Below are positions 698 to 18,387 of a stretch of 64,000 bases of DNA, one piece after another. The notes beneath the pieces were generated by a model that had not been told where the DNA came from, searched no databases, and saw only the letters and a program-made list of their open reading frames with translations. Source of the DNA: a virus. Made by a program: the position numbers and the translations under genes. The DNA lies in IMG/VR virus record IMGVR_UViG_3300024308_000006, positions 931 to 64,930 of that record; one strand, given 5' to 3'. The first letter of the stretch is position 1. Every line of letters starts with the position of its first letter.

Positions 698-3600
698 CTA
701 TTCCTCGATGGTGGCGCGCACCCTGGCGAAGTCCTCCCGCAGTTGCTGACGCATAGCGCGCGGCGCGGTGTCGGCGATACGCTGATCCTTCGACTTGCCC
801 ATTTCACGCACACGACGCATCACGTCCGGCACGCTGATGCGCATCGGCTGATCCGGGTTCTTGGCGTTCCAGTCAGCCACAGCCGCGCGCGCGTCCTGCA
901 CCTTGGCCGGGTCTTTCTCAAACACGCCCTGCGCCCACAGCGCGCGAATCTCCTGGGCGCGCATGTTGTAGAACGCCTTGCTGCGCTGCCCCAGCCAGTT
1001 GGCCTCCTGAATGGATGCCACGCTCTGCGGCTGGAAGCCCACCGCTTTCAGCGCTGCCTCCAGGGTGTTGGTGTCGAGCACCTTGTACCCTTTGTCGTCG
1101 CGGTACATGTCGGTGGCCGCCATATCTGCGCCCTTGGCCAGGTTCCGCACGGCAGTCGGCGAGACTTCCAGTAGGCCGCCTGCCAGATCACCGCTCGCAG
1201 CCTTGTGCGCGCCAGAAATCATGCGCTTGACCAGATCGCCGGCCGGGCCTGCAATCTCCAGCACGTCGCGGGAATGGTCGTCACGCTGCTGCAGCAGGCC
1301 GGTGCCAGGGATCAGGTTGCCCATACCCAGGCGGCCAGACACATCGAGCGGCGCGCCCGGCAAGCCGGTGACACCCTTGTCGATGAAGCGTGCGATGTCG
1401 TCGCCGAACACGTCGATCAGGAACTGCTCCTTGGCCTTCTGCGTGGAGAAGTTGTAACCGGCCAGCTGCGCCATCCCGTCGATCAGGTCTTCGGCGTCCT
1501 CGGCGAACGGCAGGCCGCCGGCGCCGCCCAGCAGCATCAAGGTGGCAATCATCAACAATGCAGCCTTGCGCCCGTCCTTGCGCTCTTGGCTGCCGGCCTC
1601 GCCCTGATTCCAAAGGCGCCCCATCAGTTCCAAGTAGGCCACCGAGTACGTCTTGAAGGTCATCAGCGTCGAGCCCACGGCACCGCGGCCCCAGCGCATT
1701 TTCGAGGCTTTCGAGTAGATGAACTGGGTTTCGCGCACGGCCAGGCGGGCAAAGGCGGCCGGGTCTGCGTTGCCTTGCGCCTTGGCGATCCGGTAGGCAG
1801 CTATGAAGGTCATGCGCCGGTTCACTTCCTCGGCTGCGCCGAACATCTTGCCCCAGGCCAGAGACAGGCGAGCCAACGAGTTGGATGCCAGCGCGCGGGC
1901 ATCGCCTGCTCGGGTGCCGTCTCCAGCGCGCAGGCCGCCCGTACCACTGGCCTGGGCCATCAGCTGGTGAACTTCCTGCGGGCTGACCGTGCCGTCTTCC
2001 TCGGCCAGGTGCAGCGCCTTGGCCAGGTCGGCTTCGTACCGGTAGCCCTTGGTCGCCATCTGCTTGGCGGCCTTGCTCAGCTCGCCGGCAGCCTGCTTGG
2101 CACCGCCATACTGGCTCAACCAGGGGAACGTCACCGCCACCGGCTGCGTCATGTTGACGAATGCCGAGGCCACCGAGCCGCCCAGGTACTGGGCGAACAG
2201 CAGGCCGCGCAGCGCTTGCGCTTCTTCCTGCGGGTTCTTGATGTAGTCAGCCAGGCGCACGGCGGCGTCTTTCAGCTCGCCCTGCCCCTGCGGGATCGCG
2301 TTGACCGCCTCCGACAGATCGCCCATGTTCAAGCCGGCGGCAGTCTGCCGGGCGTTGGAGTAGACGAACGACGCCAGCACGCGGCCCACGTCCTCGCTGT
2401 AACCGGCGATGCCCTGGCGGTGGATCAGGCGCTTCATCGCCGAGCGATTGGTCTTGGTCAGTTTCAGATAGTCCTGAAACACCTTGTCCCGCTCACTGTC
2501 ACCCGAAGAGTCGAGGCCCATCGCGTTACCGAAGAGCTCCAGGGTTTCCGGGGTGATACCGGCAAACAGCTTGAAGGCTTCTTCGGACAGGGTGCCCTGG
2601 CTGATGGTCGAGCCAGGGAAGGCGGCCTTCATCTGCTCGGCCATCAGGTTGGCTTCGCGCTTGGTTTCAAACAGGCTGAAATACTGGCGCTCGCCGTCCG
2701 CCCCCACCATGTCCACGGTGTACTTGCCGAAACGCGACAGCGGCGCGTAGCCCTCGGCCTGCAGCTGGGTGATCCGCTCGACGCGCTCGTTGATGCCCTG
2801 CGCCGTGTCCAGCAGGCTCATGGCTCGCTCAGGCTGGGCATCGGCCAACTGTGCCAGGTGATCACGCAGGATCAGGCCGGCTTCTTTCACATCGGCAGCA
2901 TCCATCACCTGCTCACGCAGACCTTTCACGTCCTCGCCACCGAAGCGCAGCATGTCGGCTCGTGCCATCGTGTCCAGGCTGCGGTTGGTGGCGCCGCGGA
3001 ACTCGCGGTACAGCTCGATCTGACCGTCAGTCAGGTGCCACATGGAGCGCAGCTCGGCATCCGTCCAGACAATGCCTGGCTTGAGCGACTGGGTTTCGTA
3101 GCGGCTATCCACCATCTTGGCGAACTGCTCGGCGCCCTGCCCGCGCCAGGCTGCCAGCATGCTTGCCGACAGCTTGCCCTGCTTGACCAGAATGTCCGCC
3201 TTCTGCTCGGCGGTCAGCCCCATCGCACGCTCGGCCAGGGAATCGACACGCACCGGCTTGCCGTCTTCATCGCGCGCCCACATCAGCGTGCCCTCGAAGA
3301 TCGGCGCGGAAATGGCCTTGTTGTCCTTGGCCTGCACTGGCGACTTGGCGATGTCGCGCCAGGTTTCCAGCTTCGGCAGCAGCTTCGGCGCCAACTCGGC
3401 GGCGTCACTGGCGTAGTGGCTCACGTCGTCGATGAAGCCCTGCGCCGCCTCGAACACCGGCTTGAAGTGCGGAGAGCGCTGCGCCAGGTTGTACATGGTG
3501 CCCACGGTCTTGTGCCACCACGACAGGCCGCCCGGTGCCGAGAAGGTGCGGTTGAGCTCCTGAGTGGCGCGGCTAGCGAAGTCACGCACGGCCGAGCGGC

Positions 3601-6600
3601 TAAAGCGGATGTCCGGGTCAAATTCGTCGAAGTCACCGTTGTTATCGGTGGCCGACTTGACCTGATAGTTGTTGAAGGCGATCCACACCGGAGTCCCTTT
3701 CAGGCGAATGCCGTCATACCCCTGCTGCTCCAGGCGCGTGCGCAGGCGGCGCGCTTCCAGCGGGCTTTCCACCTCCTGCGATTCCTCCACGCTCATCAGG
3801 TAGGGGTTCTGAATCGAGGCGTACAAGTCCATGACGCGGCCGTAGCCGGGCATGCCGTCGCTGGCTTTCTCCGCGTAGTTCTGCGCGGCGCGGCGGTCGG
3901 ACGACATAAAGATGCCCAGCGCCGACGTAGCATGGCCGGTCGCTGAGCCAGCTCGGCCCTGGTCAAACACGGTGAAGTCAGCAGCGGTGCCGTGGTACAG
4001 GTTCAGCGGTTGGCCGTCAGCGCCAACCACCTTGCTCTTGCCGAACCAGCGGCGGAAAGCCTCGGTGTCGGTCTGCGCGCCGCGTCGCTGCTTGGCTTCG
4101 CTATCGAAGGTCTGGCGCGGGCGACTGCCGTTGCGGATACCCTTGGAAATGACCTCAATCTCGCGCAGCAATTCGCGGCGGGTGATGATGCCTTTCTTGT
4201 AGCCGAACACCTTGCGCAGCAAGCGGGTCAGCAGGCTATACAGCAGGTCGGCGAGCTTTTCTTTGCCGCTGCGCTCACCTTCGGCCAGGCGCGCAAACAC
4301 TTCCTCGGCCTGTACGCTGTCGGATTTATCGCTGTATAGGCGTGAGATTTCAGACCACACCACTTTCAGGGTGGGGTCATCTTTACTGGCTAGGATTTTG
4401 TCGAGAAGAGCTTGCTTATCCGCTGGCGCAAACGTGTCCAGACCGTAGTGCCCGAGTAGTTCGTGACGAAGTGTCTCGACGGTATCGGCGACGGACGACA
4501 GATGATCGGCGGTAAGGGTAAATAGTCCTCGTCCGGGGTGGTAGGCGCCTTTGACGACTCCGATTTTGGCGATTGATCCTGGCCCGTAGAGTTCATCCTG
4601 CGTCTTCCTGATCCGGTAGCTGAGTTCGATGTGACCATTGTAGTCCGCCAGGAACCGCTCGGCAGCCGCGATAGCCTCGTCCAGGGTCAGCGGATTGGCC
4701 GGCGCCTTCCCCGTCACCACGCTGGATTGTGACAAACCGGCCGTTTCTACCGGCGACTGCCGGCTGAATAGCACCTCGTCCTTGCCCGCAAAGGCTTTGT
4801 CGTACTCGGCATAGAGCTGGTCAACCGCCTCCAGGCGCTGAAAACGGCTGTCTAGCCAGGTCGATAGCTTGTGCTCCAGCACGCCGTCGCCGGTTTTCTC
4901 ATACAGCGCCTTGAGCATCCCCTGCAGGAAATCCTCGTCCGCGCGGTTGTCGTTGTTCGCCGCGACCCGCGCCCGCACGGCCGCACGGCGCGCGCTGTCG
5001 GCGGTGATGCCCGAGGTGTCGGTGGCCGGCTTGTCGATCACCACCATGCGCGCGTTGACAGCAGTGTTGACCGGCAGCGCGGCATCCATAAAGGAGTTTT
5101 CCGGCAAGCGCTCGCTGGTCGCGCCCAGGTCATCTAGCCAGGCACGGAAGCCCTCGGCCGCCGAATTGCTCTGGAAGAATGCCCCCTCACCCATGATCGC
5201 CACCAGGCGCCCGCCAGGCTTGAGCAGGCTATAGGCGTGCTGGACGTGCTGAATATCCCGGCCCTTGCTGAAAGGTGGGTTCATCACGATGCGGTCGTAA
5301 CCGCTCCACGACCCGCGCTGCTCGATGCCGGTAAGCTCATCGCGGTCATACCAGCCGAGCATTTTGCCTTCACTGCCATCCTCGTTGATCGCGTGCAGGC
5401 TGGCGCGCCCGCTCCAGGCGGCACCGCCGTGCATGATGCCCTTGGTGCCGTCCGGCGCCTGGAAAATATCGCCGAAGGTGTAGAAGGTACGCGGCTGCAT
5501 AGCCATGAAGTCATCGCCGGCCAGGTGGTAGCCCTTGGCCTGGAGCAGTTCGCGGCGCTCACCGGACAGCTCAACCACGTCAGGCTCCACTCCAGTTTTC
5601 TCACGGATCGCGTCGGCAATATGGCCCATGCCGGCGGACGGCTCCAGCACCCCCATGCCTTCGGCAATCTCGGCCGCCTCCAGCATGGCATCCACCACCG
5701 CCTCACTGGTCGGGAAGAAGTCGAGGCCATCGCTGCGCCGGCCAATCATGGCCCGCTCCATCTGCTTGATCTTGTCCGGGGTCGCCATGGCCTGCTGCAA
5801 CTCGGCGAACTCGCGCAGGGCGGCCCGGTATTCGCTGCCGGTGTAGATGCCCATGCCTTCCAGGCGCTTGCGCTTGGCGTGGACGGTTTCGAGCTGCCAC
5901 GGCAGCTTGATCTTGCTGCCTGCGCGGCGGCCAACGGCCTCGACAATCTCGCGTCCGAAGTCGCCAGACAGGTCGATGCGCTTGTCGTCGCCCTGCCAGA
6001 CGCCTTGCTTCATCGCCTCGGACGGCGACAGCACGATGCGGTTCACGCCGCGTTTGAGCGGCAGCACGATGGCGCGGTCGCTCAGGTTGGCGCGGCGAAT
6101 GGCGCGTTCGGCGTCGTCGCGGCTGGCAAACTCGGCGAGCTGATCGCCACGGCCGAAGCGACTCACGCTCAGTAGGTTGTTCTTCGCCCACTCCACATAG
6201 GCGTCGCTCACGTCGTCGGCCACCTTGAGCAGGCGCTGCCCAAGGTTTTTAAGGCCGTCCACTTCGATCATCTGCCGGGCAATGCCGGCCAGGTCGGAGC
6301 GCATGCCGCCGTAGGTCGGGAAGGCCGAGTAATCGACCGTCTCGTCGTCAATAGGCTGGCCCCGGTGCCGCTCTTGGTCGGCATAGCTCGGGTACTTGGC
6401 GCGAATCTGCGCGTCCTTGGCGTTGCGCAGTTCGGCATTCAGGAACTCGACTTGCACCTTCTGACGCACAAGATCAAGGAACTTGGCTTTGCCGCTTTCA
6501 ATGGCGTCGGCGATGTTGCTCATGGTGCCCGCCAGCGCCTTGTTGGCGTTCGCGGCGCCCTCAGCGGCCGAAGCCATGCGCGCCCGGCGTGCGGTGTTGA

Positions 6601-9600
6601 CCTTGCGGTCACGCCCCAATTCTTCCTCGGCGCGCTCATTCAGCGCTGCGGCCATAGTGCGCAGGCGCTCAACGGCCGACTGGCTACGGTCATCCTCGAA
6701 GGCGTCGCGGCGTGCCTGGGCGACCTCCTGGGCGGCCGTTGTGTCACCGGCTACCAGTTTGCGGAACGCCTCGGCGGCCTCGCGGGTACGGAACTGGAAG
6801 CCAGGAATGGCACCATTGCCGCGATAACTGCTGTAGCTGCCGCCCATTCTCTTGGCCGAGCTGTTCAGGGTGTCGTAGTCGTCGCGGCTTACGCGCTCCT
6901 CCAGCTTGACGACGAACAGGTCATGCCCGTGCTTGGTGTGCTTGGTGGCAATCACCTCGCCGGCGGTGGTGTTGCCGGCACTGGCAATCTTGGTGCGCTG
7001 CTTGGCCTTGGCCTGGTCGCGCGCCTCGCGGGTGCTCTCGGCCTCCAGGGCGTCATAGCGGCGGCGTTGCTCGGGGGTCAGGCGTAGGTACGCCTCGCGG
7101 CGCGTCTCGGCGTGGCGCTCGGCGTTGTAGGTGATCGCACTGCGGAACTCGGCCAGGGTCTGCGGGTCGGTCAGCGCCTTCTGCGTGGCCTCCTTGCGCG
7201 ACTCGCGCTCTTTGCGCAGCTCGGCCACCTCGGCCGCGTACTGGCTCAAGGCGTCGGCGTCGGTGCCGGCCACCAGATCGCGCAGCGCCTGGGCCTTGGC
7301 CTGGCGGTGCGACTCCATGCCGGCCGCCGTCATCATGTAGCTGGTCGGGCCGTAGGACTTGCCCAGCGCGTACTCGTCCAGCATCGAGCGATACAAGGCT
7401 TCGACTACGCGGTCTTTCTTCTCGGACTTGTAGCGGTGGTAGAAGTGAACGCCGCCGGCGCGCAGCAGCTTCTCCTTGTTCATGCTGTTCAGCTCGGCCA
7501 GGATCACCTCGCGGTTGCCCTCGACCTGAGCGAAGGCTGCGCGGAATGCCTCGGCCTCGATCTTGCCGTCGCGCGCCTGCTCCATGGCATCCTCGTGCGC
7601 CTGCAACAGCGGCATCTTGCTGTCAGCCTTGGTCGGCGCCTGCTCTTGATCCTGCGCCTCCTGGGCGGCCTCGGTGGCGGCCTCGGCGCGCACGGCATTG
7701 ACCAGCTCGCGCACCCTGCGCTTGGATTCCGGCACGCTCTCGCCGCGCTTGCGGTCACGGAACAGTGCCGCCAGGTCGAACTTGTCGTCGAGCAGGGTGC
7801 TGCCATCTATAGGCTTGAGCTTGATGCTGGTCGGGTAGCCGTCGCGGCCCTTGTTCACGCCATCGAGCACGGCGGTCTTGGTGATCGCCACCGGCTCGCC
7901 GCCCTTCTTCCACGACAGGATTTTGCGCATTAACGTCAGATCGGCATCGCGCTCTTTCTGCGCCTTGTCCTCGCGGGCTTGGTCGGCTGCTGCCTGGTCG
8001 GCGGCTTTCTCGGCCTCGGTGCGCGCGTCGAGCGCGGCCTTGCGGGCCTTGTGCGTGTTCGCGCTCTGCCAGGCGGTGAAGGTTTCAATCGCGCGGTCGT
8101 AGGCGTTATTACGCTGGTTGGCCTGCTTGCCGTTCAGTCCAGACCGCCCCGCCACATGACCGCTGTAGGTGCCGGCCCGGACGCTCATCAGGCGGCGGTA
8201 GTTGGCCAGGTACTCGACACGCAGATCGGCGACCGCCTGAGCGACCGCCGCTTTCTGTGCGTCGGTGTGCGCTACGGCCAGGCCCGACTCGCGGGCGTCG
8301 TCGATGTAGCGCGCGTATTCCTCGGCATCGGCCTTGGCGCGGGCGCTGCCGCTGTGCGAGATACCCGAGTAGCTGTCAGCGGCCTCTTTCAGCGGGAAGT
8401 CGGCGGCGGCGTCATCTTGCGCGGCGTCGGCCGGCTGCGCCGTGGCGGCCTGCTCCACCTCGCGGATCAGGTCTGCCATGTCCTTGATACCGTGAATGGT
8501 CGGATGCTGGCCACGCCAGTTCCCGGTATTGGTCAGATACCAGCCGGGCATATCCTGACGAACAGTCCAGTCCTGCCCGTCAATGCTCACCACGTCACCC
8601 TCAAGGTACGGATTGAGCATGGACACGACGCGCGGATCGCGGCGCGACCCTGGGCGCTCCGCGCCGGCGCCCGTTGCCCTGGTGACGGAACCAAGCACCG
8701 GCTGATTGCGCAGCGCCTCGGTAGTCCGGTAGATCATCTGTTCGCGGGTCAGCGCATAGCTCAGCGGCTTGTCATCGGCCTTCTTCCACGGCGCCGGGAC
8801 GGTTTGATCGTCAGGGACGAACCGGGCAATGCCGTTACGCCCGCTCGCTTCGGGCAGCACATACAGATACAGCGGCGTCTGGTTGGTGAGCTGGACAGGT
8901 GTAATCGCGTTCACGGCATCGGTGGCCAGCATGCCAGATATGGCGCGGTAGGCGTCCGCCTTGCCCTCTCGCTGCTCCTTGGTCAGCGCGATGCCTTCCT
9001 GCGGCAGTTCGGTATGCCACATTTGCGGCGCCGCGTCGGCCTCCACCGGCTCGACCTTGCCCGCCGGCCCAGCTTTCAGTTCCCGAGCTTCCGGCAGGGT
9101 CGAATGGTTGCGCTCGCGCTCGCCTGGCTTATCGATCCACTCGCCGTCCTGCTTGACCACCGCTCGCACGGTGACGCTCCAATGGCCGTCCTTGTCCGGC
9201 GCCTGGTAGCTCACCACCCGGTCGAAGTTGCCGCCGTAACTGGGCACCACGTTGCCCGGCGCGAAGTAGTCGGCTACGGCCTGAGCCTTGGCCTCGGCCG
9301 CCTTCTCCATGACGCTGCGCTTGCTCTCGGGCTTGGCAGCCGGCGTGTCCGTCACCGCTTCCAGCTGAATGCGCCGAGCCGGGTGCTCGCTAAACCGCTT
9401 CTTGAACTTGATCGCCTGGTCTTGCGTCATCGGCTCGCCGAACGACAGGTACTCTTTAGCGCCGGTGCGTTCGTTGATAGCGACCACTTGGAAGCGCGCA
9501 GCGGCAGCGCCGCTCTCTGCCTTCACCTCTTTGGCGCGCTCGACCACGCTCTTGGGCTTCACCTCGGCCTTGCCGCTGGCCTGCATGTAGCCGCGAATCT

Positions 9601-12600
9601 CGGCCGGCGTGCGGGTATCCTCCTTCATGCTTATCGGACTGAGAATGCCGACCAGTTCGCCATTCAGCCGCACCTGCAAAGCGCTGTAGTCGCCGCGACT
9701 GTTCGGCTCGCCGGCGAAGAACTCCGCGCCCTTGAACTTGCTCAGGAAGTAGCGGACGTAATTCAGGTTCAGATAGACCGCAGGCTCGCCTTCCTTGCGG
9801 GAAAAAACGGCCTGCTTGCTGTCCTTGAGGTCGGGCCGATCATTGATCGCCAGCGGCTCCAGTTTCACGGCCGCGCGGCCGGCATTGGAGCCGGCCACCA
9901 CATTGGCCACCGCATTCTCGTTGATGGTCGTGCGCAGCCTGTCCATGCGCTCGGCCCAGCCTTTCAGGTGCGGCTCGCTGCCGGACAGGTCGATCAGGTG
10001 CCCACTGGCCGAATAGACCGTTTGCCCCTGGAAGGTGCCGGTCATCCAGTTAGTCACCTTGGCTGCGGTCGGCTTCACGCTCAGCTCGCGCAGGTCGGCG
10101 GCCTCGTAGCCGTCGCGCTTGGCCTGGGCCTCGGCTTCGGCGTCGGCCTTCTCCTTGGCCTCGGCATCCTTCACCAGCTGCTCGGCGGCGCGCTCGTTGG
10201 CGGCAGCGGTCTGGCGCATCTGCTGGATGGCATCGCGCGCTGTCTTGACCAGAGCCTCGTCAATGCCGAAGCGCTCCGCGTCGAAGGTGCGCGCGTCGTA
10301 CAAGGCCATATCCCGGTTGAAGCTCTCCAGCGCCTTCGCCGTGCGCTCGGCAAAGCGCTGGGCGCTGGCCAGGTCAGAAACGGCCGGCGGGTTGCTTCCT
10401 GGGTATGCGGTATCAACCTTGTACGGCTCTTTCACCAGGGCACGCCCCATCAGGCTCGCCAGGTCTTTGCCGGTGCCCTTCTCGACCTCTGCCATGAAGC
10501 CCATCACCGACTGCCAGCGGTTGTACACATCGGCCGGCTTCTCGCCGGTGGCGCCGGCGACTTTGGCGAAGGCGATCACCTCGGGCATTTCGCCGTGGCC
10601 TTCGCTGCGCAGTTGCTCAAAGCGGGCGGCCGGCGTGGCCGGCTCAGCATCGGCGCTTGCGCCAGTTGCGCCAGTTGCGCCAGTTGCGCCATTTGCGACA
10701 TTTGCGACAGCCCCCGCAGCGGCTGGCTCCAACTCGTCGCGCACCAGGGCGGCGGCATAGTCGTGCGCCGTCTTGCCCAGGTCGTAGTCGTTGACGTAGT
10801 AGACCGTTTTGCTGCCGGCCTGCTGCATGCGCTTTTCGTGCATGCGCTGCTCGGCCTCGGTCGCCCGGTTGAAGTCGCGGCGCGACATAGGCTTGATTCG
10901 CGGCTCTTGGCTGGTCGATACCGACAACTCGCCGGCGGCGTGCCACGCCTCGATATGCTCGCGCAGGGTTGCGGCCTTGCCGTCGATACGAATTTGCTTG
11001 TTCAGCGCCTTGATCGCCAGGGCGGCCACGTTGGGGGCCATATCCTTGACGTAGTTGTCCAGGCTCGGCGAGGTGGCGGCCGCTTTGGCGGCGGCTTCTG
11101 CTGCCTCTTGGTCGGCGCTGGCCTGGCCGCGGTTGCGCTGGCGGTATTCGACGTACCAGTCGAGGTCGGCGTCGGTGCGCTCTTCCGGCGGCGTGGCCTT
11201 GATTCGGGCCACACGCTCAGCGTCAGATTCCTGGGCCGGGGCTTCGGCCGCAGCTGGGGCGGCGTCCAGCTCAGCCAGCGCTTTGCGCACCTCGTCGGGG
11301 TTGTCCATACCCTCGATAGAGACGCCCTGGTCTTCCATGTTGTCGCGGGCGCCGTTGTACCAGCCGCGCAGGTACGGGCGAATCTTCTCCAGTGGCTGCC
11401 CCAGGTCATCGGCCATCAGGCGCGCGAACTCGGCGAAGCGGCGGGCGCTGGCTTCCAAGTGGAAGATGGCCAGCTCGGTGCCCATGGCCAGAATCTCGGG
11501 ATCGAGCCCGCTATTGAGCTGGGAACCGTTCAGCTTGGCGGCGAGCTTGGAGCGCAGCTCGGCGGCACGGTCGGCCGTGACCAGCTTGTTCTTGGCGCCG
11601 TACTCGTCGGTTTTTTTCTTCCGCTCGCCGACCGCCGCGCTCTCGGCGCCACCTGCCTGGCCCTGCCGCTTGCGCAGGGCTACAGCGCCCGGCTCGCGGC
11701 GCTGTGCTGCGCCAAGCAGGGCGTCGAAGGTGAAGATATTGCCGGTCAGTTGCTCAACCACGTCGGCCGGTACGTCGAAGCGCTTGCCCAGGTCGGTGAT
11801 TTCCGCATCTGACAGTCGGCGGCCTTGCTCAATGGCATGGTCGGCCATGGCTCGGGCTAGAGGCGCCAGCGAGCGGCCTTTGTAGCTGCCCTGAAACTCG
11901 TCGCCCAGCTTGCGCAGGTGCGCGGCGTATTCGTCGGCCTTGCGCTCGTCCACCTGCTCCGGAGTCTGCGCCGTCACTGGCGCTTGCGTCTTGACGCTCG
12001 CAGGTGCCGCCTCACTGCTGCTGTCGGTGGTCGAACTGGGGAACTCATGCGCCAACTTGACCAGCTCGCGGATCGGCGCGCCCAGGCTGATCACCTTCAC
12101 GTCCTCGCCCTTCTCGCGCGCAGCCAGCCACTGGTGATGGCCGTCCAGCACATGACCGTCCTGGGAAATCAGGATGGAGCGGTTGCCGCCCTCGAAGTCG
12201 CGGGCCTTGGCCACCTTGTCGCGGGAAAACTCGGCCTGTGTCGGCCTGAGCGCAGAGGCCGGGACGGTGCTCTCCTGATGCTGCACGCCTCGGGCATTGA
12301 GGAAGTTGACCATCGCCCCGCGATGCTCGGCCTTGATCTGCGGCATCTCGGCGCGCGGAATGCCCACGGTGCCAGAGCCAGGGTGGAAGGCATACCAGCC
12401 GCCGCCTGTGTCGCGGCTCTCATGCTCCTGGCGGGCTTTCATGCGTGCTTCCAGTGACTCGACATTGCTGTGCTGGTCGGCGTCATGGATGCCCATAGCC
12501 TCGGCCTGAGCCACCAGCTCGCGGCTCGGCCTTGCCAGCAGGCGCTTGTTCTCTTGCATGCGCTCTATGTGAGGGTCTTTCACAGCCGGCTCGGCAGCCA

Positions 12601-15070
12601 TTGCGGCAGCCAGCTTTTGCTGGGTCGCCTCACCAATGCGATCCCACGGTGCGCCGGGCAGGCTCTTGGCAAACACGGGCTTGACGCCCGACTTTTCAGC
12701 CAGCGCTTGGCGCTCGTCGCGGCTCATCGCCTCCCAGCGGGCGCCGTGGTCTACCCCTGCAGGGCTTCCTGCGGCTGTGGTTCCAGCTGCTTCGGCATCA
12801 GCGGTGGGTGCTTGGCCTCCCACTTGCGCTGATTGCGGGCTTGCTTCGACGGCTTGAGCGGCTTGCGGGACATTCTCGGTTCCTTGAGTGGCGCGCTTGG
12901 CCTGCTCCTTCTGCAGCTTGGCGGTGCGCTTGTGGTCGGGGCCGTAGCGGTCGATGGCCTGGGCAATCTCCGCGTCGGTCATCTGCGGGATTTGCTTGGC
13001 GGTGATGGCCTTGATGTCGGCCGGCGCCATGGCATCATCGACCATGCTGCGCGGGCGCTCGCCGGTCTTGCGGTAATTCAAGGTGCTGACCGGATCGGCG
13101 AAGTCAAGCCTGGCGTCAGCTTCAAGCGCAGCAGCCTGGTCGGGGTTCTCGTTCAGCCATTGACGGGCCGCGCCAAGCGATTTCTCGATGTCGTTCAGCT
13201 CTGCACGCAACTTTCCAGCGCGCCCTGCGCGCGCCATGTTCGGCGAAGCCTCGTTTTCAGCAATGGCCTGCTCGATGTCGGCACCATCAGGAATCTGATT
13301 GCGCTGCTTGAAGTCGCTCAGGCGCGAGGCAAGCCAGCCGGATACGGCGGGGTGATCCTGCGGCTTGGCCTGCACCTTCTCGGCGCGCACCTTGGCGATA
13401 CCCTGCTGCAACGGGGTCGGCTGGGAGACTTCCTGCTTGGCGGCCTCAACGGCGGCCGGGGCTTCGGCAGAAATGCTGATTTCCGGCGACTTGCCCATGT
13501 CGGCAATCAGTGAGTCGGTGGCGGCGCGGCTGGCGTCTGCCTCGGTGCCGCCCTGGCTCAATACCTGCCTGGCGGCCTGCTTCGCCTTGCCTGCCGGGGT
13601 ATCCAGCGCGTCAAGCTCTGCGCGGGCTTCGTCGTGGGCCTGAATCAGCTTGTTGTCCCAGCCGCTTATACGGGCCTGCTGCTCGATGTAGGAAATGAGG
13701 GTGGTCAGTTCCTCAGTGCGATCCGGTGCAGACTGGATGATTTCCCCGGTGTTCGTGTCGATCTGCTCGCCAGCCTTGGCGCCCTTCTTGGCTTCTTTCT
13801 GTGCCAGTTCGGCGGCTTGCTGCTCGGCAGCCTGTTGCGCCAGTTGCGCGGAAGCGCCGGTATCCACGGCGGTAGCAGCAGCATCGGACAGCGCGCCGGC
13901 AGCCGGATCAAGCCCCATTTGCTCGGATGGCCTGGCCGGGAAAGGTCGCTCAGTGCGGTACTGCGGCTGCACCTGGCCAGGCGCCATGCCGGCAGCCAGC
14001 GGCTCGGCAGTTGGCGCCTGCGGCTCCGCCACGGGATCAGCGGCCGGAGCGGGATCAGCGGCAGGCTCATCGCCCGCAAGCTCGGTTGGATCTACCACCG
14101 GGGCCGATTGTGAGTCATGGGCAAATGCACCCTCGACCGCGCCGAAGCCACCACCTGCCGCAGCGCCAGCCAAGCCTTCCAGCGCAGCCTGACCGGCAAC
14201 GCCTTGCCAGGTCGGAGTATCAAAGCCTTCGTTCTGCAGGGCGATGTTCGACGCCAGGCGTTCTTGGCCGCCTTGCGCGGCCTCCAGCGGCGCCTCCTTC
14301 GCAGCGCCCAGCAGCGTGGATCGGATCACTCCCTGCGCAGCGGCCTCGCCGGCTTCATTACCCAGCATCCGGCCAACCACTCCTTCAACGCCGGTAGTAC
14401 CTGCTGCAACGCCAAGCCCTGCGCCGAGCGCAATCTGTCCGGCGTTATCGCCGCCGTAAGCCTGCGCCTCTACGGCTCGGGCCTCTGCCTCCTCTGGCGT
14501 GGCGCCGGCATCAAGGTGCTGCTGCTTAACTGCGTCGTAGATGGCGCCTTTAACCGTGCCCGCGCCCTGCGCGGCACCCATTGCACCAGCTACCGGAGCG
14601 CGCAGTTTTCCGCGCGTCAGCGCAGTAGCCGCGATGGTCGGCAATGACGTGCCCAGCGCCTCGACAGTGGTGTCGATGGGCGCCTCGGCAAATGCGCCGA
14701 CGTTCGCCTTCACTTCCTCCCAGGTGCTACCGGAAGCCTCGGCTTTCTTGATCTTCTCAGCGCGCGCGGCGCGCTCTTCGCGGCGGGCCTCCGTCTCGAA
14801 ACCGCGAACATAGTCGGCGGCATCGCCGAGCTTCTGCGAAACCGCATTGCCAGCCCCGGCGGCATTGGCCAGGAGCTGGATGCCGGTAACGGCACCGGAG
14901 CCAGCAGCGACTGCCGTATCGCGCAGGGCGCCGCCAAACCCCTTAGCGGTGTCCGGTGCGTCCTCCATGAAGGAGTCAACTGCGCTTGTTTTCGCGGGAG
15001 TGTCAGAAACCGGCTCGTCCAGAAACTTGTCGATGTCGCTCACTGAGTACGATTCCTTATTGGTAGCCAA
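698..15070 (-). CDS. giant multi-domain 'polyvalent' virion protein (4,790 aa)
   Basis: Single uninterrupted ORF. Its ATG overlaps the upstream virion gene stop by 14 nt. Contains ParB-like, N6-MTase, HExxH, ART-like and PLxRFG motifs (sub-features below), plus a hydrophobic C-terminal region. Confidence 0.85.
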   Translation of the reverse strand: MATNKESYSVSDIDKFLDEPVSDTPAKTSAVDSFMEDAPDTAKGFGGALRDTAVAAGSGAVTGIQLLANAAGAGNAVSQKLGDAADYVRGFETEARREERAARAEKIKKAEASGSTWEEVKANVGAFAEAPIDTTVEALGTSLPTIAATALTRGKLRAPVAGAMGAAQGAGTVKGAIYDAVKQQHLDAGATPEEAEARAVEAQAYGGDNAGQIALGAGLGVAAGTTGVEGVVGRMLGNEAGEAAAQGVIRSTLLGAAKEAPLEAAQGGQERLASNIALQNEGFDTPTWQGVAGQAALEGLAGAAAGGGFGAVEGAFAHDSQSAPVVDPTELAGDEPAADPAPAADPVAEPQAPTAEPLAAGMAPGQVQPQYRTERPFPARPSEQMGLDPAAGALSDAAATAVDTGASAQLAQQAAEQQAAELAQKEAKKGAKAGEQIDTNTGEIIQSAPDRTEELTTLISYIEQQARISGWDNKLIQAHDEARAELDALDTPAGKAKQAARQVLSQGGTEADASRAATDSLIADMGKSPEISISAEAPAAVEAAKQEVSQPTPLQQGIAKVRAEKVQAKPQDHPAVSGWLASRLSDFKQRNQIPDGADIEQAIAENEASPNMARAGRAGKLRAELNDIEKSLGAARQWLNENPDQAAALEADARLDFADPVSTLNYRKTGERPRSMVDDAMAPADIKAITAKQIPQMTDAEIAQAIDRYGPDHKRTAKLQKEQAKRATQGTENVPQAAQAVEASPQSAQVGGQAPTADAEAAGTTAAGSPAGVDHGARWEAMSRDERQALAEKSGVKPVFAKSLPGAPWDRIGEATQQKLAAAMAAEPAVKDPHIERMQENKRLLARPSRELVAQAEAMGIHDADQHSNVESLEARMKARQEHESRDTGGGWYAFHPGSGTVGIPRAEMPQIKAEHRGAMVNFLNARGVQHQESTVPASALRPTQAEFSRDKVAKARDFEGGNRSILISQDGHVLDGHHQWLAAREKGEDVKVISLGAPIRELVKLAHEFPSSTTDSSSEAAPASVKTQAPVTAQTPEQVDERKADEYAAHLRKLGDEFQGSYKGRSLAPLARAMADHAIEQGRRLSDAEITDLGKRFDVPADVVEQLTGNIFTFDALLGAAQRREPGAVALRKRQGQAGGAESAAVGERKKKTDEYGAKNKLVTADRAAELRSKLAAKLNGSQLNSGLDPEILAMGTELAIFHLEASARRFAEFARLMADDLGQPLEKIRPYLRGWYNGARDNMEDQGVSIEGMDNPDEVRKALAELDAAPAAAEAPAQESDAERVARIKATPPEERTDADLDWYVEYRQRNRGQASADQEAAEAAAKAAATSPSLDNYVKDMAPNVAALAIKALNKQIRIDGKAATLREHIEAWHAAGELSVSTSQEPRIKPMSRRDFNRATEAEQRMHEKRMQQAGSKTVYYVNDYDLGKTAHDYAAALVRDELEPAAAGAVANVANGATGATGATGASADAEPATPAARFEQLRSEGHGEMPEVIAFAKVAGATGEKPADVYNRWQSVMGFMAEVEKGTGKDLASLMGRALVKEPYKVDTAYPGSNPPAVSDLASAQRFAERTAKALESFNRDMALYDARTFDAERFGIDEALVKTARDAIQQMRQTAAANERAAEQLVKDAEAKEKADAEAEAQAKRDGYEAADLRELSVKPTAAKVTNWMTGTFQGQTVYSASGHLIDLSGSEPHLKGWAERMDRLRTTINENAVANVVAGSNAGRAAVKLEPLAINDRPDLKDSKQAVFSRKEGEPAVYLNLNYVRYFLSKFKGAEFFAGEPNSRGDYSALQVRLNGELVGILSPISMKEDTRTPAEIRGYMQASGKAEVKPKSVVERAKEVKAESGAAAARFQVVAINERTGAKEYLSFGEPMTQDQAIKFKKRFSEHPARRIQLEAVTDTPAAKPESKRSVMEKAAEAKAQAVADYFAPGNVVPSYGGNFDRVVSYQAPDKDGHWSVTVRAVVKQDGEWIDKPGERERNHSTLPEARELKAGPAGKVEPVEADAAPQMWHTELPQEGIALTKEQREGKADAYRAISGMLATDAVNAITPVQLTNQTPLYLYVLPEASGRNGIARFVPDDQTVPAPWKKADDKPLSYALTREQMIYRTTEALRNQPVLGSVTRATGAGAERPGSRRDPRVVSMLNPYLEGDVVSIDGQDWTVRQDMPGWYLTNTGNWRGQHPTIHGIKDMADLIREVEQAATAQPADAAQDDAAADFPLKEAADSYSGISHSGSARAKADAEEYARYIDDARESGLAVAHTDAQKAAVAQAVADLRVEYLANYRRLMSVRAGTYSGHVAGRSGLNGKQANQRNNAYDRAIETFTAWQSANTHKARKAALDARTEAEKAADQAAADQAREDKAQKERDADLTLMRKILSWKKGGEPVAITKTAVLDGVNKGRDGYPTSIKLKPIDGSTLLDDKFDLAALFRDRKRGESVPESKRRVRELVNAVRAEAATEAAQEAQDQEQAPTKADSKMPLLQAHEDAMEQARDGKIEAEAFRAAFAQVEGNREVILAELNSMNKEKLLRAGGVHFYHRYKSEKKDRVVEALYRSMLDEYALGKSYGPTSYMMTAAGMESHRQAKAQALRDLVAGTDADALSQYAAEVAELRKERESRKEATQKALTDPQTLAEFRSAITYNAERHAETRREAYLRLTPEQRRRYDALEAESTREARDQAKAKQRTKIASAGNTTAGEVIATKHTKHGHDLFVVKLEERVSRDDYDTLNSSAKRMGGSYSSYRGNGAIPGFQFRTREAAEAFRKLVAGDTTAAQEVAQARRDAFEDDRSQSAVERLRTMAAALNERAEEELGRDRKVNTARRARMASAAEGAANANKALAGTMSNIADAIESGKAKFLDLVRQKVQVEFLNAELRNAKDAQIRAKYPSYADQERHRGQPIDDETVDYSAFPTYGGMRSDLAGIARQMIEVDGLKNLGQRLLKVADDVSDAYVEWAKNNLLSVSRFGRGDQLAEFASRDDAERAIRRANLSDRAIVLPLKRGVNRIVLSPSEAMKQGVWQGDDKRIDLSGDFGREIVEAVGRRAGSKIKLPWQLETVHAKRKRLEGMGIYTGSEYRAALREFAELQQAMATPDKIKQMERAMIGRRSDGLDFFPTSEAVVDAMLEAAEIAEGMGVLEPSAGMGHIADAIREKTGVEPDVVELSGERRELLQAKGYHLAGDDFMAMQPRTFYTFGDIFQAPDGTKGIMHGGAAWSGRASLHAINEDGSEGKMLGWYDRDELTGIEQRGSWSGYDRIVMNPPFSKGRDIQHVQHAYSLLKPGGRLVAIMGEGAFFQSNSAAEGFRAWLDDLGATSERLPENSFMDAALPVNTAVNARMVVIDKPATDTSGITADSARRAAVRARVAANNDNRADEDFLQGMLKALYEKTGDGVLEHKLSTWLDSRFQRLEAVDQLYAEYDKAFAGKDEVLFSRQSPVETAGLSQSSVVTGKAPANPLTLDEAIAAAERFLADYNGHIELSYRIRKTQDELYGPGSIAKIGVVKGAYHPGRGLFTLTADHLSSVADTVETLRHELLGHYGLDTFAPADKQALLDKILASKDDPTLKVVWSEISRLYSDKSDSVQAEEVFARLAEGERSGKEKLADLLYSLLTRLLRKVFGYKKGIITRRELLREIEVISKGIRNGSRPRQTFDSEAKQRRGAQTDTEAFRRWFGKSKVVGADGQPLNLYHGTAADFTVFDQGRAGSATGHATSALGIFMSSDRRAAQNYAEKASDGMPGYGRVMDLYASIQNPYLMSVEESQEVESPLEARRLRTRLEQQGYDGIRLKGTPVWIAFNNYQVKSATDNNGDFDEFDPDIRFSRSAVRDFASRATQELNRTFSAPGGLSWWHKTVGTMYNLAQRSPHFKPVFEAAQGFIDDVSHYASDAAELAPKLLPKLETWRDIAKSPVQAKDNKAISAPIFEGTLMWARDEDGKPVRVDSLAERAMGLTAEQKADILVKQGKLSASMLAAWRGQGAEQFAKMVDSRYETQSLKPGIVWTDAELRSMWHLTDGQIELYREFRGATNRSLDTMARADMLRFGGEDVKGLREQVMDAADVKEAGLILRDHLAQLADAQPERAMSLLDTAQGINERVERITQLQAEGYAPLSRFGKYTVDMVGADGERQYFSLFETKREANLMAEQMKAAFPGSTISQGTLSEEAFKLFAGITPETLELFGNAMGLDSSGDSERDKVFQDYLKLTKTNRSAMKRLIHRQGIAGYSEDVGRVLASFVYSNARQTAAGLNMGDLSEAVNAIPQGQGELKDAAVRLADYIKNPQEEAQALRGLLFAQYLGGSVASAFVNMTQPVAVTFPWLSQYGGAKQAAGELSKAAKQMATKGYRYEADLAKALHLAEEDGTVSPQEVHQLMAQASGTGGLRAGDGTRAGDARALASNSLARLSLAWGKMFGAAEEVNRRMTFIAAYRIAKAQGNADPAAFARLAVRETQFIYSKASKMRWGRGAVGSTLMTFKTYSVAYLELMGRLWNQGEAGSQERKDGRKAALLMIATLMLLGGAGGLPFAEDAEDLIDGMAQLAGYNFSTQKAKEQFLIDVFGDDIARFIDKGVTGLPGAPLDVSGRLGMGNLIPGTGLLQQRDDHSRDVLEIAGPAGDLVKRMISGAHKAASGDLAGGLLEVSPTAVRNLAKGADMAATDMYRDDKGYKVLDTNTLEAALKAVGFQPQSVASIQEANWLGQRSKAFYNMRAQEIRALWAQGVFEKDPAKVQDARAAVADWNAKNPDQPMRISVPDVMRRVREMGKSKDQRIADTAPRAMRQQLREDFARVRATIEE
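2714..2755 (-). other. PLxRFG motif inside the giant protein
   Basis: Translation reads EGYAPLSRFGKYTV. This motif is characteristic of large polyvalent phage and conjugative-element proteins. Confidence 0.6.
3600..4060 (-). other. ADP-ribosyltransferase-like (ART-PolyVal-type) module of the giant protein
   Basis: FRRWFGKSKVVGADGQPLNLYHGTAADFTVFD...ALGIFMSSDRRAAQNYAEK...GIRLKG...NYQVKSA. Family assignment is from memory of the YHGT/F.S pattern, not a search. Confidence 0.5.
4200..4645 (-). other. zincin-like HExxH metallopeptidase module of the giant protein
   Basis: ETLRHELLGHYGLDTF (HExxH). Coincides with a local GC drop (about 52% versus about 65% in the flanks). Confidence 0.55.
5030..5735 (-). 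other. SAM-dependent N6-adenine DNA methyltransferase module of the giant protein
   Basis: Motif I VLEPSAGMGHIAD and motif IV IVMNPPF, followed by LLKPGGRLVAIMGEG. Confidence 0.75.
10657..10710. repeat. 9-bp tandem repeat x6 (TTGCGCCAG-like) inside the giant gene
   Basis: ttgcgccag x3, then ttgcgccat, ttgcgacat, ttgcgacag. Encodes ...VANVANGATGATGATGAS... in a linker region. Confidence 0.9.
12038..12365 (-). other. ParB/Srx-like nuclease-fold module of the giant protein
   Basis: PRAEMPQIKAEHRGAMVNFLNARGV...LRPTQAEFSRDKV...ILISQDGHVLDGHHQWLAAREKG... Confidence 0.7.
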
Positions 15071-17621
15071 GGGCGCGCAACTGCTTTGCGCGCTCGTCGC
15101 GGGAGAGGTTCTGGTTGTTCTTGATGGCTAGCGCCTGCGGGTTCTGCTCGATAGGCGGCAACGCGGCGCTCTGCCCGATGATCTGGCCGTTGGCACGATT
15201 GAACACGGCATCGCCTCGGTTTGTGACCATGCCGGTGATGGGATCAACTTCGGTGCCCAGGCTGACAGTGCCGTACTGATCGGGCTTGTCCTTTCCGGTC
15301 AACACGCGCAACTGCTCGGCAATCGCCGCGCGATCCTCTGGAGCCGCCTTGTCGTACTGCTCGTATAGTTTTTCCAGGCGCTGCGCCGAGCGCGCCGCAA
15401 AGCCCTTGCTTTCCAGTTCGGCGGCGGTGCGCTGCTGATCCAGGGCGTTGCTCTGCGCGAAGCGCTGATTGGCGCCCGCTTCGGTGATGGCGACACGGCC
15501 ATCCGCGCCTTCCTGCTGTATCCGCTCGCGGGCCAGGTCAGTAGCGTTGCGGTCGCTCGACTCCTGCAGTCCGGCCAGGGTGCGCAACTGGTTCGCGGTA
15601 AGCTGGCCGCCCGGAGAGCCACGGTATGGCGTGCTGGCGGCAGCGATTGCAGCTCGACCGGCTTCGCCGTCACGCGAACTGTCACGCACTACGGTCACGC
15701 CGCCAGGCCGGAAGCCCTGCGCTCCGGCTTCGCGCGTGCCCTGCATGATTTCCGCAGCGCGCAGGTTGCGCTCCATGCCTTCCTGGCCACCACTGGCCAC
15801 GCTGAACGTGCCGCCGCGATTGGGCATATCCAGTTGCCCACTGGCGCCAGCGACAGCCTGTGCCTCGTTGGTGAAGCTGTACTGGCCGTTCTCGTCCTTC
15901 TTGCCGACGATGCCGCCAATGCCGGTCTGCTGATAGCCGTTACCCTGCGGAGCCTGGGCTTGGGCTGGGGCGGGCGCAGCCTCGCCCTGTACGACCTGCG
16001 GCGCCGCAGGCTTGGCCGCGACTGGCTCGCTGCTGCCCGGCTGCTGCACTGGTGCCGCCACGGCGGCGCCTGGCGCCTGCTCGCCCTGCATGTCTCGGTA
16101 CAGCAGGTTGCCGGCCGCGCCCATAGTCAGGCTGTTGCCCAGGTCACTGGCGAAGCCCAGGCCGCGCAGCGCGGCGAACTTTAAAATGTCGCCCGCCGAA
16201 CCATCGCCGGTCGGCTCATCCATGCCGAAGCGCTGGGCGTAGCGCGCTGTAGAATCGTCGGCAGCAGACTCGGCCAGCGCCGGAACAATGGCCAGGGCGC
16301 CAACGCCCTTGCCGGCCGCGCCGTTGACCGCCGCCCTGCCGCGACCAGGCGCCTTCTCCGGCGCGGCCGGCTGATTCTTGGCGGCCTCAAAGCGCGCATC
16401 TTGGGCGGCGCGGTCAGCCTCGAAGGCGGCCGTATCACGCGCGGCACGGGCCTTGACCTCGGCGCGAGCGCGATAGTCCGGCTCAGGGCGAGCGGACGCC
16501 TTCGGCGCTTCTGTATCTGGCGCGCCAGCGGTCGGCTGATTGACCGGCACCAGCGAAGTTCCGGTAACGGGGCCGGCGGGCACTACGGCGCGCGAGGAAG
16601 ACGGCGAGAAGCCGCGCCCTGTTTCGCCACGGGAATTGGTGTGGAAGTCAGCCTGCGAAGCGCCGCCCGGCGCAGCGCCGGCCGGGCTTGGCTGGCGAGT
16701 CGTGGCTACTTCGGTGCCCGTGACCGGGCCGGCCGGCACCAAAGCGCGAGACTGCGACGGCAGCACACGGGTAGCGGTGCCCTGTCCATCGACATAGATA
16801 GGGGTCGGGCGCGGGGTGACTTTGCGCTGCGGAGTGTTGTTGCGGCCAAGTTCGTCTGGATCAATCCTACTGTAGACGGGGCCGCCGTCGGCAAACGACT
16901 GCTCGCTTGGTGTGTACTGATCGGCGGCGGCTCCAAAGGCGGCACTGCCGGCGGTGGCAGCGGCAGTCTTTCCAGCTGAGGGCACGAAGCCGGCCGCCGT
17001 TTTAAGGGTGGGCGCTACTGCGCGCATTGCGCCGAACACGGGGATCGCTTGCGCAGCAGCCAGCCCCATTCCCGCGACATCCCCTTGACCTGCGGCGTCG
17101 TGCATCGCGCCAATGGCCGAGCCGAGGCTGGTTACGGGATTGAGCGCTCGACCGACGCGCTGCATGGTAGACGGGCTTCCGGCCTCAAACTGAGCGTTGT
17201 CGCTCGACCAATACCCGCCTACGCTGTCGCTGAACTCCTGTACTGCGCCGCCATCAGCAAAGAACAGTTCCGGCTTGCCCTGCTCATTGCCGCGAGGCTG
17301 GAAGCCCTTGACTCCCTGCTGCTGCGCTGCCGGCACATGCGTAGCGTTCTTCATGGCATCCAGGGTCTGCACGCCCACTGCATGCACCTGCTCCGGCGAC
17401 ATGAGCTGTTCGCCGTTGCTCAGGTTCACATCGACCGGGGCGCCCATGCCCTGCAGTTGTTCGGCGCCGATCTGCGCGGTGGAGTCGGCCGGCATCACAT
17501 AGCTGCCCTCGGCCACCGTGGCCTTCACGTCGTCGGAAGTGCCGGTGCCCGGCCCTTGGATAGTCCCGCTCTTGATCGAGCGGGGAGCCTTGGGCTTGGA
17601 GCCCGCCTTGAATCCGCGCAT
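15057..17621 (-). CDS. 854-aa Gly/Ala/Pro-rich virion protein (possible internal/ejection protein)
   Basis: ORF-track ORF with a low-complexity A/G/P/Q-rich sequence. Translationally coupled to the giant gene. The function is inferred from position only. Confidence 0.55.
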   Translation of the reverse strand: MRGFKAGSKPKAPRSIKSGTIQGPGTGTSDDVKATVAEGSYVMPADSTAQIGAEQLQGMGAPVDVNLSNGEQLMSPEQVHAVGVQTLDAMKNATHVPAAQQQGVKGFQPRGNEQGKPELFFADGGAVQEFSDSVGGYWSSDNAQFEAGSPSTMQRVGRALNPVTSLGSAIGAMHDAAGQGDVAGMGLAAAQAIPVFGAMRAVAPTLKTAAGFVPSAGKTAAATAGSAAFGAAADQYTPSEQSFADGGPVYSRIDPDELGRNNTPQRKVTPRPTPIYVDGQGTATRVLPSQSRALVPAGPVTGTEVATTRQPSPAGAAPGGASQADFHTNSRGETGRGFSPSSSRAVVPAGPVTGTSLVPVNQPTAGAPDTEAPKASARPEPDYRARAEVKARAARDTAAFEADRAAQDARFEAAKNQPAAPEKAPGRGRAAVNGAAGKGVGALAIVPALAESAADDSTARYAQRFGMDEPTGDGSAGDILKFAALRGLGFASDLGNSLTMGAAGNLLYRDMQGEQAPGAAVAAPVQQPGSSEPVAAKPAAPQVVQGEAAPAPAQAQAPQGNGYQQTGIGGIVGKKDENGQYSFTNEAQAVAGASGQLDMPNRGGTFSVASGGQEGMERNLRAAEIMQGTREAGAQGFRPGGVTVVRDSSRDGEAGRAAIAAASTPYRGSPGGQLTANQLRTLAGLQESSDRNATDLARERIQQEGADGRVAITEAGANQRFAQSNALDQQRTAAELESKGFAARSAQRLEKLYEQYDKAAPEDRAAIAEQLRVLTGKDKPDQYGTVSLGTEVDPITGMVTNRGDAVFNRANGQIIGQSAALPPIEQNPQALAIKNNQNLSRDERAKQLRALGYQ

Positions 17622-18385: not shown

Positions 18386-18387
18386 CC

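Follow-up and report, generated by a model that had tools for sequence, protein, structure and literature searches.

A giant polyvalent protein with a predicted ejection chassis in an F116-like Pseudomonas podophage

Why would a phage devote more than a fifth of its genome to one gene? We analyzed a 64,000-nucleotide (nt) stretch of IMG/VR virus record IMGVR_UViG_3300024308_000006 (positions 931 to 64,930 of the record, hereafter the window), in which a single gene on the minus strand accounts for 22.5% of the DNA. A sequence-only reading of the window, made without database searches, had put the share at 22% and described the product as a multi-enzyme "polyvalent" virion protein. Our results support a polyvalent, virion-type protein of the F116/Bcep22 kind. 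The protein contains an ADP-ribosyltransferase domain (ART-PolyVal), a PLxRFG module, an M.TaqI-like methyltransferase and modules shared with TraC and ArdC proteins, and it is homologous to gp60 of Pseudomonas phage H66. We conclude that it is most probably the ejection protein, expanded into a polyvalent carrier, of a temperate Pseudomonas podophage of the F116 type. The ~3,300 amino acids between its N- and C-terminal chassis are, as predicted from sequence, a cargo of independently exchangeable modules.

The reading frame is open without interruption from 15070 to 698 (coordinates are window positions, and features lie on the minus strand unless noted otherwise). Counted from the first possible start, a TTG, it has 4,790 codons, which is the single open reading frame that the sequence-only reading described without stating its strand. 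That the frame is uninterrupted holds, but the product is likely shorter. A GTG at 15043 is the likely start codon, since an AAGGAA ribosome-binding site lies 9 nt upstream and the GTG falls 13 nt past the TAA of the upstream gene (15057-15059); the coding sequence is therefore 698..15043, encoding 4,781 amino acids plus a stop. The gene caller of the source assembly (ENA ERZ27245897, contig k141_161760, 65,187 bp) returned the same 4,781-amino-acid product. In DNA of 65% guanine-plus-cytosine (GC) content, where ~2.5% of random codons are stops, a frame this long has a chance of ~1e-53, as estimated from base composition. Because of this improbability, the identity to H66 gp60, the uninterrupted orthologues and an excess of synonymous changes (the last two described below), we conclude that it is not a chance open reading frame. 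All motifs quoted in the sequence-only reading occur where expected in the translation. The length is ordinary for the class, as homologues reach 7,176 amino acids. Two long antisense frames on the plus strand lie inside the gene, at 7979-11812 (1,277 amino acids) and 1205-3946 (913 amino acids). These are taken to be the usual artefacts of high-GC DNA; no homology search was aimed at them.

By sequence comparison, the window is nearly the whole of a ~65-kb Pseudomonas phage genome, kin to the F116/H66 group (Hollowayvirus). When the gene was compared with phage records by megablast, only F116-like Pseudomonas phages matched (the hollowayviruses E220, Epa33, H66, LKA5 and phiC725A), sharing ~76% DNA identity across no more than 42% of the gene. 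Closer relatives are a Pseudomonas sp. GW6 contig (L002) and two ~64-kb IMG/VR contigs, L003 and L004 (up to ~94% nucleotide identity), whose giant proteins are 4,713 and 5,022 amino acids long, respectively, with the frame intact in both. Since matches to the relatives run from window position 1 back round to 64000, the window is an almost complete, circularly permuted phage genome.

The counterpart in H66 is gp60, a 3,787-amino-acid "PLxRFG domain-containing protein" that is listed in its GenBank record as a virion component verified by mass spectrometry. H66 gp60 and its F116 equivalent (F116p60, 1,649 amino acids) occupy the same genomic slot as our gene, after the tail and virion genes and ahead of the holin, endolysin and Rz genes. 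The giant protein and gp60 are homologous end to end in collinear blocks, with 79% identity in a ParB-like module, 67-90% in the mid region and methyltransferase, and 77% in the PLxRFG module. The window protein is 994 amino acids longer than gp60, which lacks ~1,100 amino acids present here (1011-1889 and 1998-2212). In place of the HExxGH and ART-PolyVal modules of the window protein, gp60 carries LPD23, LPD3 and a DUF6782 metallopeptidase.

The ejection assignment derives from the C-terminal module (amino acids 3813-4781; 701..3607). NCBIfam model NF032893 ("tail-700") matched the last ~680 amino acids with an expect value (E) of 4e-204 (680 bits, where the cutoff is 100, over model positions 45-681 of 681), and a second tile matched model positions 2-245. 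The PLxRFG motif noted in the sequence-only reading (nt 2717-2749) is part of this module. Over 968 amino acids, this module is 77% identical to H66 gp60. We counted at least 287 homologues that share 48-77% identity with it, and the module occurs in 72 phage records, from Hollowayvirus, Shewanella phage Y11, Lastavirus, and Erwinia, Serratia, Sinorhizobium, Vibrio, Microcystis and Agrobacterium phages. Immediately upstream of the module, the homologues carry different Pfam domains, which may be ART-PolyVal, LPD3, LPD23, LPD1, PBECR, MuF_C, InPase or RadC.

An AlphaFold model of the C-terminal module, built from a 50-sequence alignment, had a predicted local distance difference test score (pLDDT) of 81 and a predicted template modelling (TM) score of 0.72. 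The model is nearly all helical, with a small beta unit after the PLxRFG motif. The "hydrophobic C-terminal region" of the sequence-only reading does contain a hydrophobic stretch, but this is just one strong helix (amino acids 4495-4513; nt 1505-1561), which is followed by an invariant GGLPFxED motif. Comparison of the model with BFVD recovered C-terminal pieces of polyvalent proteins, proteins annotated as internal virion protein D (hereafter IVP-D) of Roseobacter phages CRP-4/5, and large proteins of ICP2, CW02 and P12053L, all at E 1e-5 to 1e-9; the TM-scores for the CRP-4/5, ICP2 and CW02 proteins were 0.2-0.45. Using comparisons between hidden Markov models (HMM-HMM) on joined sets, Hardies et al. 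(PMC4819975) assigned H66 gp60 to an extended T7 gp16 (IVP-D) family (E 8e-19), and pointed out that in gp60, as in N4 gp50, an IVP-D homologue is linked to a domain whose action has to take place within the cell. We conclude that the C-terminal ~970 amino acids form a conserved chassis, predicted to belong with the ejection proteins of the IVP-D/T7 gp16 family. The sequence-only reading had overlooked it. Because of this chassis, the giant protein is expected to be present in virions.

To characterize the cargo, we ran Pfam on the whole protein, on 650-amino-acid tiles and on tighter tiles. With the whole protein and the 650-amino-acid tiles, ART-PolyVal was the only significant match, while the tighter tiles added sub-threshold methyltransferase matches. 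PLxRFG was the only match in NCBIfam, and a phmmer search of the whole protein against PDB sequences returned nothing. The ADP-ribosyltransferase module (amino acids 3663-3812; 3608..4057) matched Pfam ART-PolyVal (PF18760) at amino acids 3675-3805, covering model positions 2-140 of 140 with E 9e-24 and 85.3 bits against a cutoff of 31.2. The ADP-ribosyltransferase-like module proposed from the letters is therefore well founded.

The same holds for the N6-adenine (amino) methyltransferase proposed in the sequence-only reading (amino acids 3081-3345; 5009..5803), in which motif I (VLEPSAGMG) lies at amino acids 3132-3140 and motif IV (NPPF) within amino acids 3252-3258. A nine-sequence profile of this module matched M.TaqI (E 4e-9), the EcoR124II HsdM subunit (E 2e-7) and further adenine-specific enzymes. 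EPSAGxG and NPPF were invariant across the alignment, and the motif order is that of M.TaqI. The expected match to Pfam N6_Mtase was present, as was one to MTS, but both fell below the gathering score. Between motif I and NPPF, an insertion of ~70 amino acids (~3180-3250; window ~5290-5500) is found in Hollowayvirus-type relatives and is absent from more distant ones.

Comparison with the two closest viral contigs revealed which parts of the protein are exchanged, with entire cargo cassettes replaced between phages that are ~95% identical. Most of the protein is 90-100% identical to both L003 and L004. Identity falls to ~30% at amino acids ~440-675 against both contigs, to ~30% at ~775-860 in L003 only, and to ~28% in the HExxGH module (~3440-3640) in close relatives, where the alternative allele reads HEGQGH. 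L004, the closest relative, also has an insertion of 355 amino acids at window amino acid ~1140 (nt ~11620; L004 ~10500-11600). The insertion is a C5-cytosine DNA methylase (PF00145, E 2e-6) with the motifs FDTSG, PPCTDFS and ENP; thus, the L004 ejection protein carries two different DNA methyltransferases. In codon comparisons with L003 and L004, synonymous changes far outnumbered non-synonymous changes everywhere but in the replaced cassettes. From this excess, we conclude that the unassigned parts are real coding sequence under constraint. Per 200 codons, there were 0-10 synonymous differences from L003 at amino acids 1-400 and 1201-1400 (window 13844-15043 and 10844-11443), compared with 40-50 across the C-terminal half. 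Such patchy divergence suggests recent recombination inside the giant gene.

Two of the cargo junctions carry a short [FY]SR motif. The swapped HExxGH cassette starts right after VLFSR (amino acid 3426; [FY]SR at 3426-3428, window 4766-4774), and the PLxRFG module opens with IRFSR (amino acid 3814; [FY]SR at 3814-3816, window 3602-3610). At the latter junction, [FY]SR is kept in about three-quarters of the homologues that span it. The motif could be a processing site or a mere signature of the module boundary. Database proteins that begin with MFSR were considered as PLxRFG genes standing alone, but the example we checked has its start only 16 nt away from the end of a contig and proves nothing.

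We characterized the module that is replaced in close relatives, which we call HExxGH (amino acids 3392-3660; 4064..4870). The sequence-only reading had described it as a zincin with an HExxH motif. The residues are R-H-E-L-L-G-H, and the motif is thus HExxxH (His3527, Glu3528 and His3532), followed downstream by an AEEVFA helix; a zincin fold is nevertheless plausible. No Pfam model matched the module, including MPTase-PolyVal (PF18818; no match at E <=5), although that profile had been expected. The family is a unit of ~200 amino acids with an invariant HE..G, a near-invariant second His and the near-invariant AEEVFA helix ~50 residues on. In one relative (P0128), Tyr replaces the second His. 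Members occur as stand-alone proteins, at the N-terminus of 504-amino-acid zeta-toxin kinases encoded by plasmids of Pseudomonas, Xanthomonas and Burkholderia, beside ArdC-N, and as the first ~205 amino acids of IncP TraC primases. Identity to the TraC N-terminal domain is 34.6% (E 1e-29), with 267 plasmid records, 239 of them conjugative. We considered whether the module is the annotated MPTase of TraC and rejected this possibility: a Pfam search of TraC showed that the homologous domain is a different, N-terminal one (amino acids 2-206), separate from the PF18818 domain (374-499). The family is also carried by L008 (3998-4615) and by proteins P0139, P0145 and P0158.

In an AlphaFold model of the HExxGH module (pLDDT 76), a helix and three strands precede the motif helix and later helices. 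A zincin layout of that kind, and HEXXXH variants, were described by Iyer et al. (2017). Foldseek comparison of the model with the PDB gave nothing significant (best E 0.4), and the weak, non-significant matches include anthrax lethal factor, MATCAP and M32 carboxypeptidase. Together, the motif and model point to a probable atypical zincin.

The N-terminal region (amino acids 1-440; 13724..15043) is Gly/Ala-rich, as the sequence-only reading had noted, with 23-24% Ala and 11-15% Gly over the first 400 amino acids. Its identity to the two closest relatives is 99-100% at amino acids 1-300 and 92-100% at 301-400, and amino acids 197-480 are 34% identical to H66 gp60. The N-terminal ~440 amino acids probably belong to the conserved chassis. 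Next comes a variable linker rich in Ala, Gln, Glu and Pro with short conserved motifs (amino acids 441-873; 12425..13723), within which lie the segments swapped in close relatives at ~440-675 and ~775-860.

The next module (amino acids 874-1010; 12014..12424) had been assigned a ParB/Srx-like nuclease fold. The module is extremely widespread and has invariant PRxxMPQ, LKPTQxE and DGHHQ motifs. At E 1e-3 we found 3,536 representatives, of which many are 2,000-7,176 amino acids long, and 222 phage records contain it, those of the Bcep22-like, Ralstonia and Lastavirus giants among them. As to the fold, the module gave no Pfam match at E <=5 (ParBc, ParBc_2 or ddrB-ParB), so the profile matches expected by the sequence-only reading did not occur; ParBc_2 was seen below threshold in 10 of 31 relatives (best E 0.019). 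A profile of the module matched no ParB structure in the PDB, and hhalign comparison with P1 DdrB gave a probability of 0.3%. In all 31 of these diverse relatives, the last residue of DGHHQ is Gln, where the ParB/Srx superfamily has a conserved Arg (DGxHR / GxxR). Elsewhere, the module does have two invariant arginines. As we read it, the order of its motifs (LxPTQ, hydrophobic strand, DGHHx helix, strand) would suit the beta-alpha-beta-beta-alpha-beta core of ParB. We refer to the module as ParB-like, with a putative fold.

Between the ParB-like module and the methyltransferase lies the least familiar part of the cargo. Amino acids 1011-2212 are mostly absent from H66 and had seven matches among 5.8 billion clusters. 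Five modules could be delimited here. The helical modA (amino acids 1148-1254; 11282..11602; phrog_938) is common to other giants and a protein with an N12-class methylase and a helicase. The second, modB (1305-1437; 10733..11131), is rare but conserved. The largest, modD (1469-1824; 9572..10639), is shared with C-terminal extensions of proteins containing ArdC-N and MPTase-PolyVal, and also exists as a stand-alone protein of 374 amino acids. The small modC (1926-1998; 9050..9268) is also found in H66 gp60 and P0007. Lastly, modE (1999-2212; 8408..9049) is an orphan, with no homologue beyond the closest relatives, and is under purifying selection. A weak, sub-threshold CBM_5_12 match within amino acids 2000-2215 (window 8399-9046), at GDVVSIDGQDWTVRQDMPGW (E 0.04), is probably due to chance.

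The region that follows (amino acids 2213-3080; 5804..8407) is conserved and is kept in H66. It has no Pfam or PDB match, and a seven-sequence profile of amino acids 2213-3084 likewise found no PDB chain at E <=10 and no Pfam match. In relatives, the last ~600 amino acids of this region (~2470-3080) are always directly upstream of the methyltransferase. Since the two always travel together, this segment may be an accessory of the methyltransferase.

The giant gene closes the structural block. Immediately downstream is a holin of 93 amino acids (316..597; phrog_4237, E 1e-29), followed on the same strand by the start of a lysozyme-type endolysin (1..319; phrog_7, E 8e-17), which is truncated by the window start and whose ATG overlaps the holin stop (ATGA). 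The giant gene is thus directly before the holin and endolysin, as the sequence-only reading stated. Upstream is a late gene for 854 amino acids (15057..17621; phrog_11341), the counterpart of H66 gp59. What had been called translational coupling of this gene pair is a gap of 13 nt, or an overlap of 14 nt if the TTG start is used, and any coupling is putative. A gene of 196 amino acids on the plus strand (17795-18385; DUF4124 in the source annotation, phrog_9068 at E 3e-6) sits within the minus-strand structural block, and an overlapping mechanical minus-strand frame (17693-18391) had no PHROG match. ARAGORN found no tRNA or tmRNA genes in the window.

How does the giant protein compare with known systems? 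Bcep22 gp75 and JC1 gp69, the Lessievirus "DarB-like" giants of ~4,500-4,600 amino acids, are also encoded by a late giant gene that takes up ~22% of a podophage genome of ~61-65 kb and lies just upstream of the lysis genes. JC1 gp69 (4,515 amino acids, 22.1% of the genome) was found in virions by mass spectrometry. The ParB-like module is ~50% identical in BcepMigl and DC1 and 68% identical in ZX1, and the PLxRFG module is common to the window protein and the 495-kDa PLxRFG protein of Lastavirus. The Bcep22, JC1 and Lastavirus proteins differ from ours in that the PLxRFG module is ~25-28% identical where detected, the cargo is different and the phages infect another host genus. A second comparison is with T7 gp16 and N4 gp50, ejection proteins that also bear a cytoplasm-acting domain; Hardies et al. 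(PMC4819975) group H66 gp60 with T7 gp16 and with the C-terminal domain of N4 gp50. The additional domain is a lytic transglycosylase in T7 gp16 and an RNA polymerase in N4 gp50, whereas the window protein carries a methyltransferase, an ADP-ribosyltransferase, a putative zincin and further modules.

The likeness to polyvalent proteins (Iyer, Burroughs, Anand, de Souza and Aravind, 2017), which include RP4 TraC1 and ArdC, consists of two or more effector-type domains, a late-gene location and ART-PolyVal. In addition, HExxGH occurs in the TraC N-terminus, modD occurs in proteins with ArdC-N and MPTase, and the H66 cargo matches LPD23 and LPD3. Unlike these proteins, the window protein has no Pfam match to MPTase-PolyVal, ddrB-ParB or LPD domains, and it is anchored to an IVP-D ejection module rather than to a MuF, portal or type IV secretion system context.

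Could the protein instead serve antirestriction in the manner of P1 DarB, as a methyltransferase-helicase pair packaged in the head to methylate incoming DNA in cis? P1 DarB and DdrB are capsid-packaged protectors of incoming DNA, DarB contains an adenine methyltransferase, as does the window protein, and homologues in Bcep22-like, Lastavirus and Erwinia phages are annotated in this way. However, we found no helicase domain in Pfam, NCBIfam or PDB searches, and no significant similarity to DarB or DdrB-ParB; BLASTP of amino acids 2213-3349 against P1 DarB gave a best E of 0.9, in motif I only. PHROG family phrog_10089, labelled "DarB-like antirestriction" in PHROG/pharokka, does match two parts of the protein, but these are amino acids 932-1445, starting within the ParB-like module, and the PLxRFG module, not a methylase-helicase unit. 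With neither a helicase nor similarity to DarB, the "DarB-like" label is not earned and we consider this explanation improbable, although DNA protection by the methyltransferase module may still be one activity of the giant protein. We regard as equally improbable the idea that the protein is essentially a structural core protein, in which enzyme-like modules are inactive relics or spacers adding capsid mass or length. Much of the sequence would suit such a role, being mostly helical and Ala-rich without recognizable enzyme folds, and the Gln that replaces the conserved Arg in the ParB-like module and the Tyr that replaces the second His of HExxGH in P0128 could be read as signs of decay. Set against this, motif I and NPPF of the methyltransferase are invariant, HE..GH and the downstream Glu of the HExxGH family are invariant or nearly so, and ART-PolyVal scores far above its cutoff. 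Moreover, cassette exchange under purifying selection suits functional cargo better than filler.

Two further explanations appear very remote to us. One is that an N4 gp50-like virion RNA polymerase is hidden in amino acids 2213-3080. The size of this conserved region (870 amino acids without an assignment) would allow it, the homologue in phiC725A is annotated as a "putative internal virion polymerase" and, according to Hardies et al. (PMC4819975), the IVP-D module is common to N4 gp50. Yet neither the whole protein nor the profile of amino acids 2213-3084 matched the PDB at E <=10, where the N4 mini-vRNAP would be expected among the chains, no Pfam polymerase matched, and the region from ~2470 always travels with the methyltransferase. 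Since the profile matches nothing in the PDB or Pfam, a hidden N4-type RNA polymerase is not supported. The other, to which we give as little weight, is that an assembly or annotation artefact has fused two or more genes. The F116 annotation divides the counterpart between two large genes (Hardies et al., PMC4819975), and high-GC DNA yields long spurious frames, of which the antisense frames of 1,277 and 913 amino acids are examples. The giant frame, by contrast, is intact here, in H66 and in two related but independent viral contigs, where indels and exchanged cassettes have left it open; many metagenomic representatives are 4,000-7,176 amino acids long, and homology and codon-level selection back the frame along its length.

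A model that accommodates these data is that the giant protein is an ejection protein carrying exchangeable cargo. The gene lies at the end of the structural block, between the tail/virion genes and the lysis cassette, and this order suggests that it would be expressed late with the structural genes. The protein would be incorporated into the capsid through its IVP-D module, as homologues verified in virions suggest, and, by analogy with T7 gp16 and N4 gp50, would leave through the tail at infection, either before the DNA or together with it. On the same analogy, the C-terminal module, with its hydrophobic helix and GGLPFxED motif, may help form an envelope-spanning conduit. The cargo would then reach the cytoplasm, possibly freed by the zincin-like module, though cutting of the polyprotein is speculative. 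There, the methyltransferase may shield incoming DNA from restriction, while the ADP-ribosyltransferase may modify host proteins (compare T4 Alt).

Several points weigh against this model. We infer the presence of the window protein in virions, and its ejection, from homologues and by analogy. The C-terminal model resembled no solved structure, T7 gp16 included, in a Foldseek search of the PDB (best E 1, TM-score <0.1). Direct hhalign comparison with T7 gp16 gave a weak match (E 0.003, probability 10%, 120 columns), which aligns the hydrophobic-helix region with T7 gp16 residues 1075-1196; since this match is weak, the IVP-D assignment comes mainly from the published HMM-HMM work and from database labels. 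The ParB and zincin assignments are putative, and ~2,000 amino acids of the cargo have no inferred function. Finally, as N4 gp50 is packaged unprocessed (Iyer et al.), proteolytic release of the cargo is just one possibility.

A bolder version of the model, which we put forward tentatively and with more doubt than conviction, is that the cargo is an actively shuffled arsenal, swapped at fixed junctions. The modules modE, DGHHQ (ParB-like) and HExxGH and the ~600-amino-acid region upstream of the methyltransferase might then be uncharacterized anti-defence or takeover effectors that are injected into the host, and the PLxRFG chassis might be an ejection fold without a solved representative.

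Proteins of this kind, their place in the virion and their polyvalent design have been described before (Hardies 2016; Iyer 2017; the Bcep22 and JC1 papers), while the combination of modules is new. Because the kind has been described, the value of our analysis is incremental, and lies in candidate modules rather than in a new principle. What is added is a clean module map and the finding of cassette swaps at defined junctions among close relatives, a corrected HExxGH motif tied to the N-terminus of IncP TraC and to plasmid zeta-toxin fusions, and a confidently modelled PLxRFG chassis with no match among solved structures. From giant ejection proteins with cargo one can read what a phage sends into the cell before its own genes are expressed, and they thus form a natural inventory of the activities used in a first strike, both for counter-defence and for takeover.

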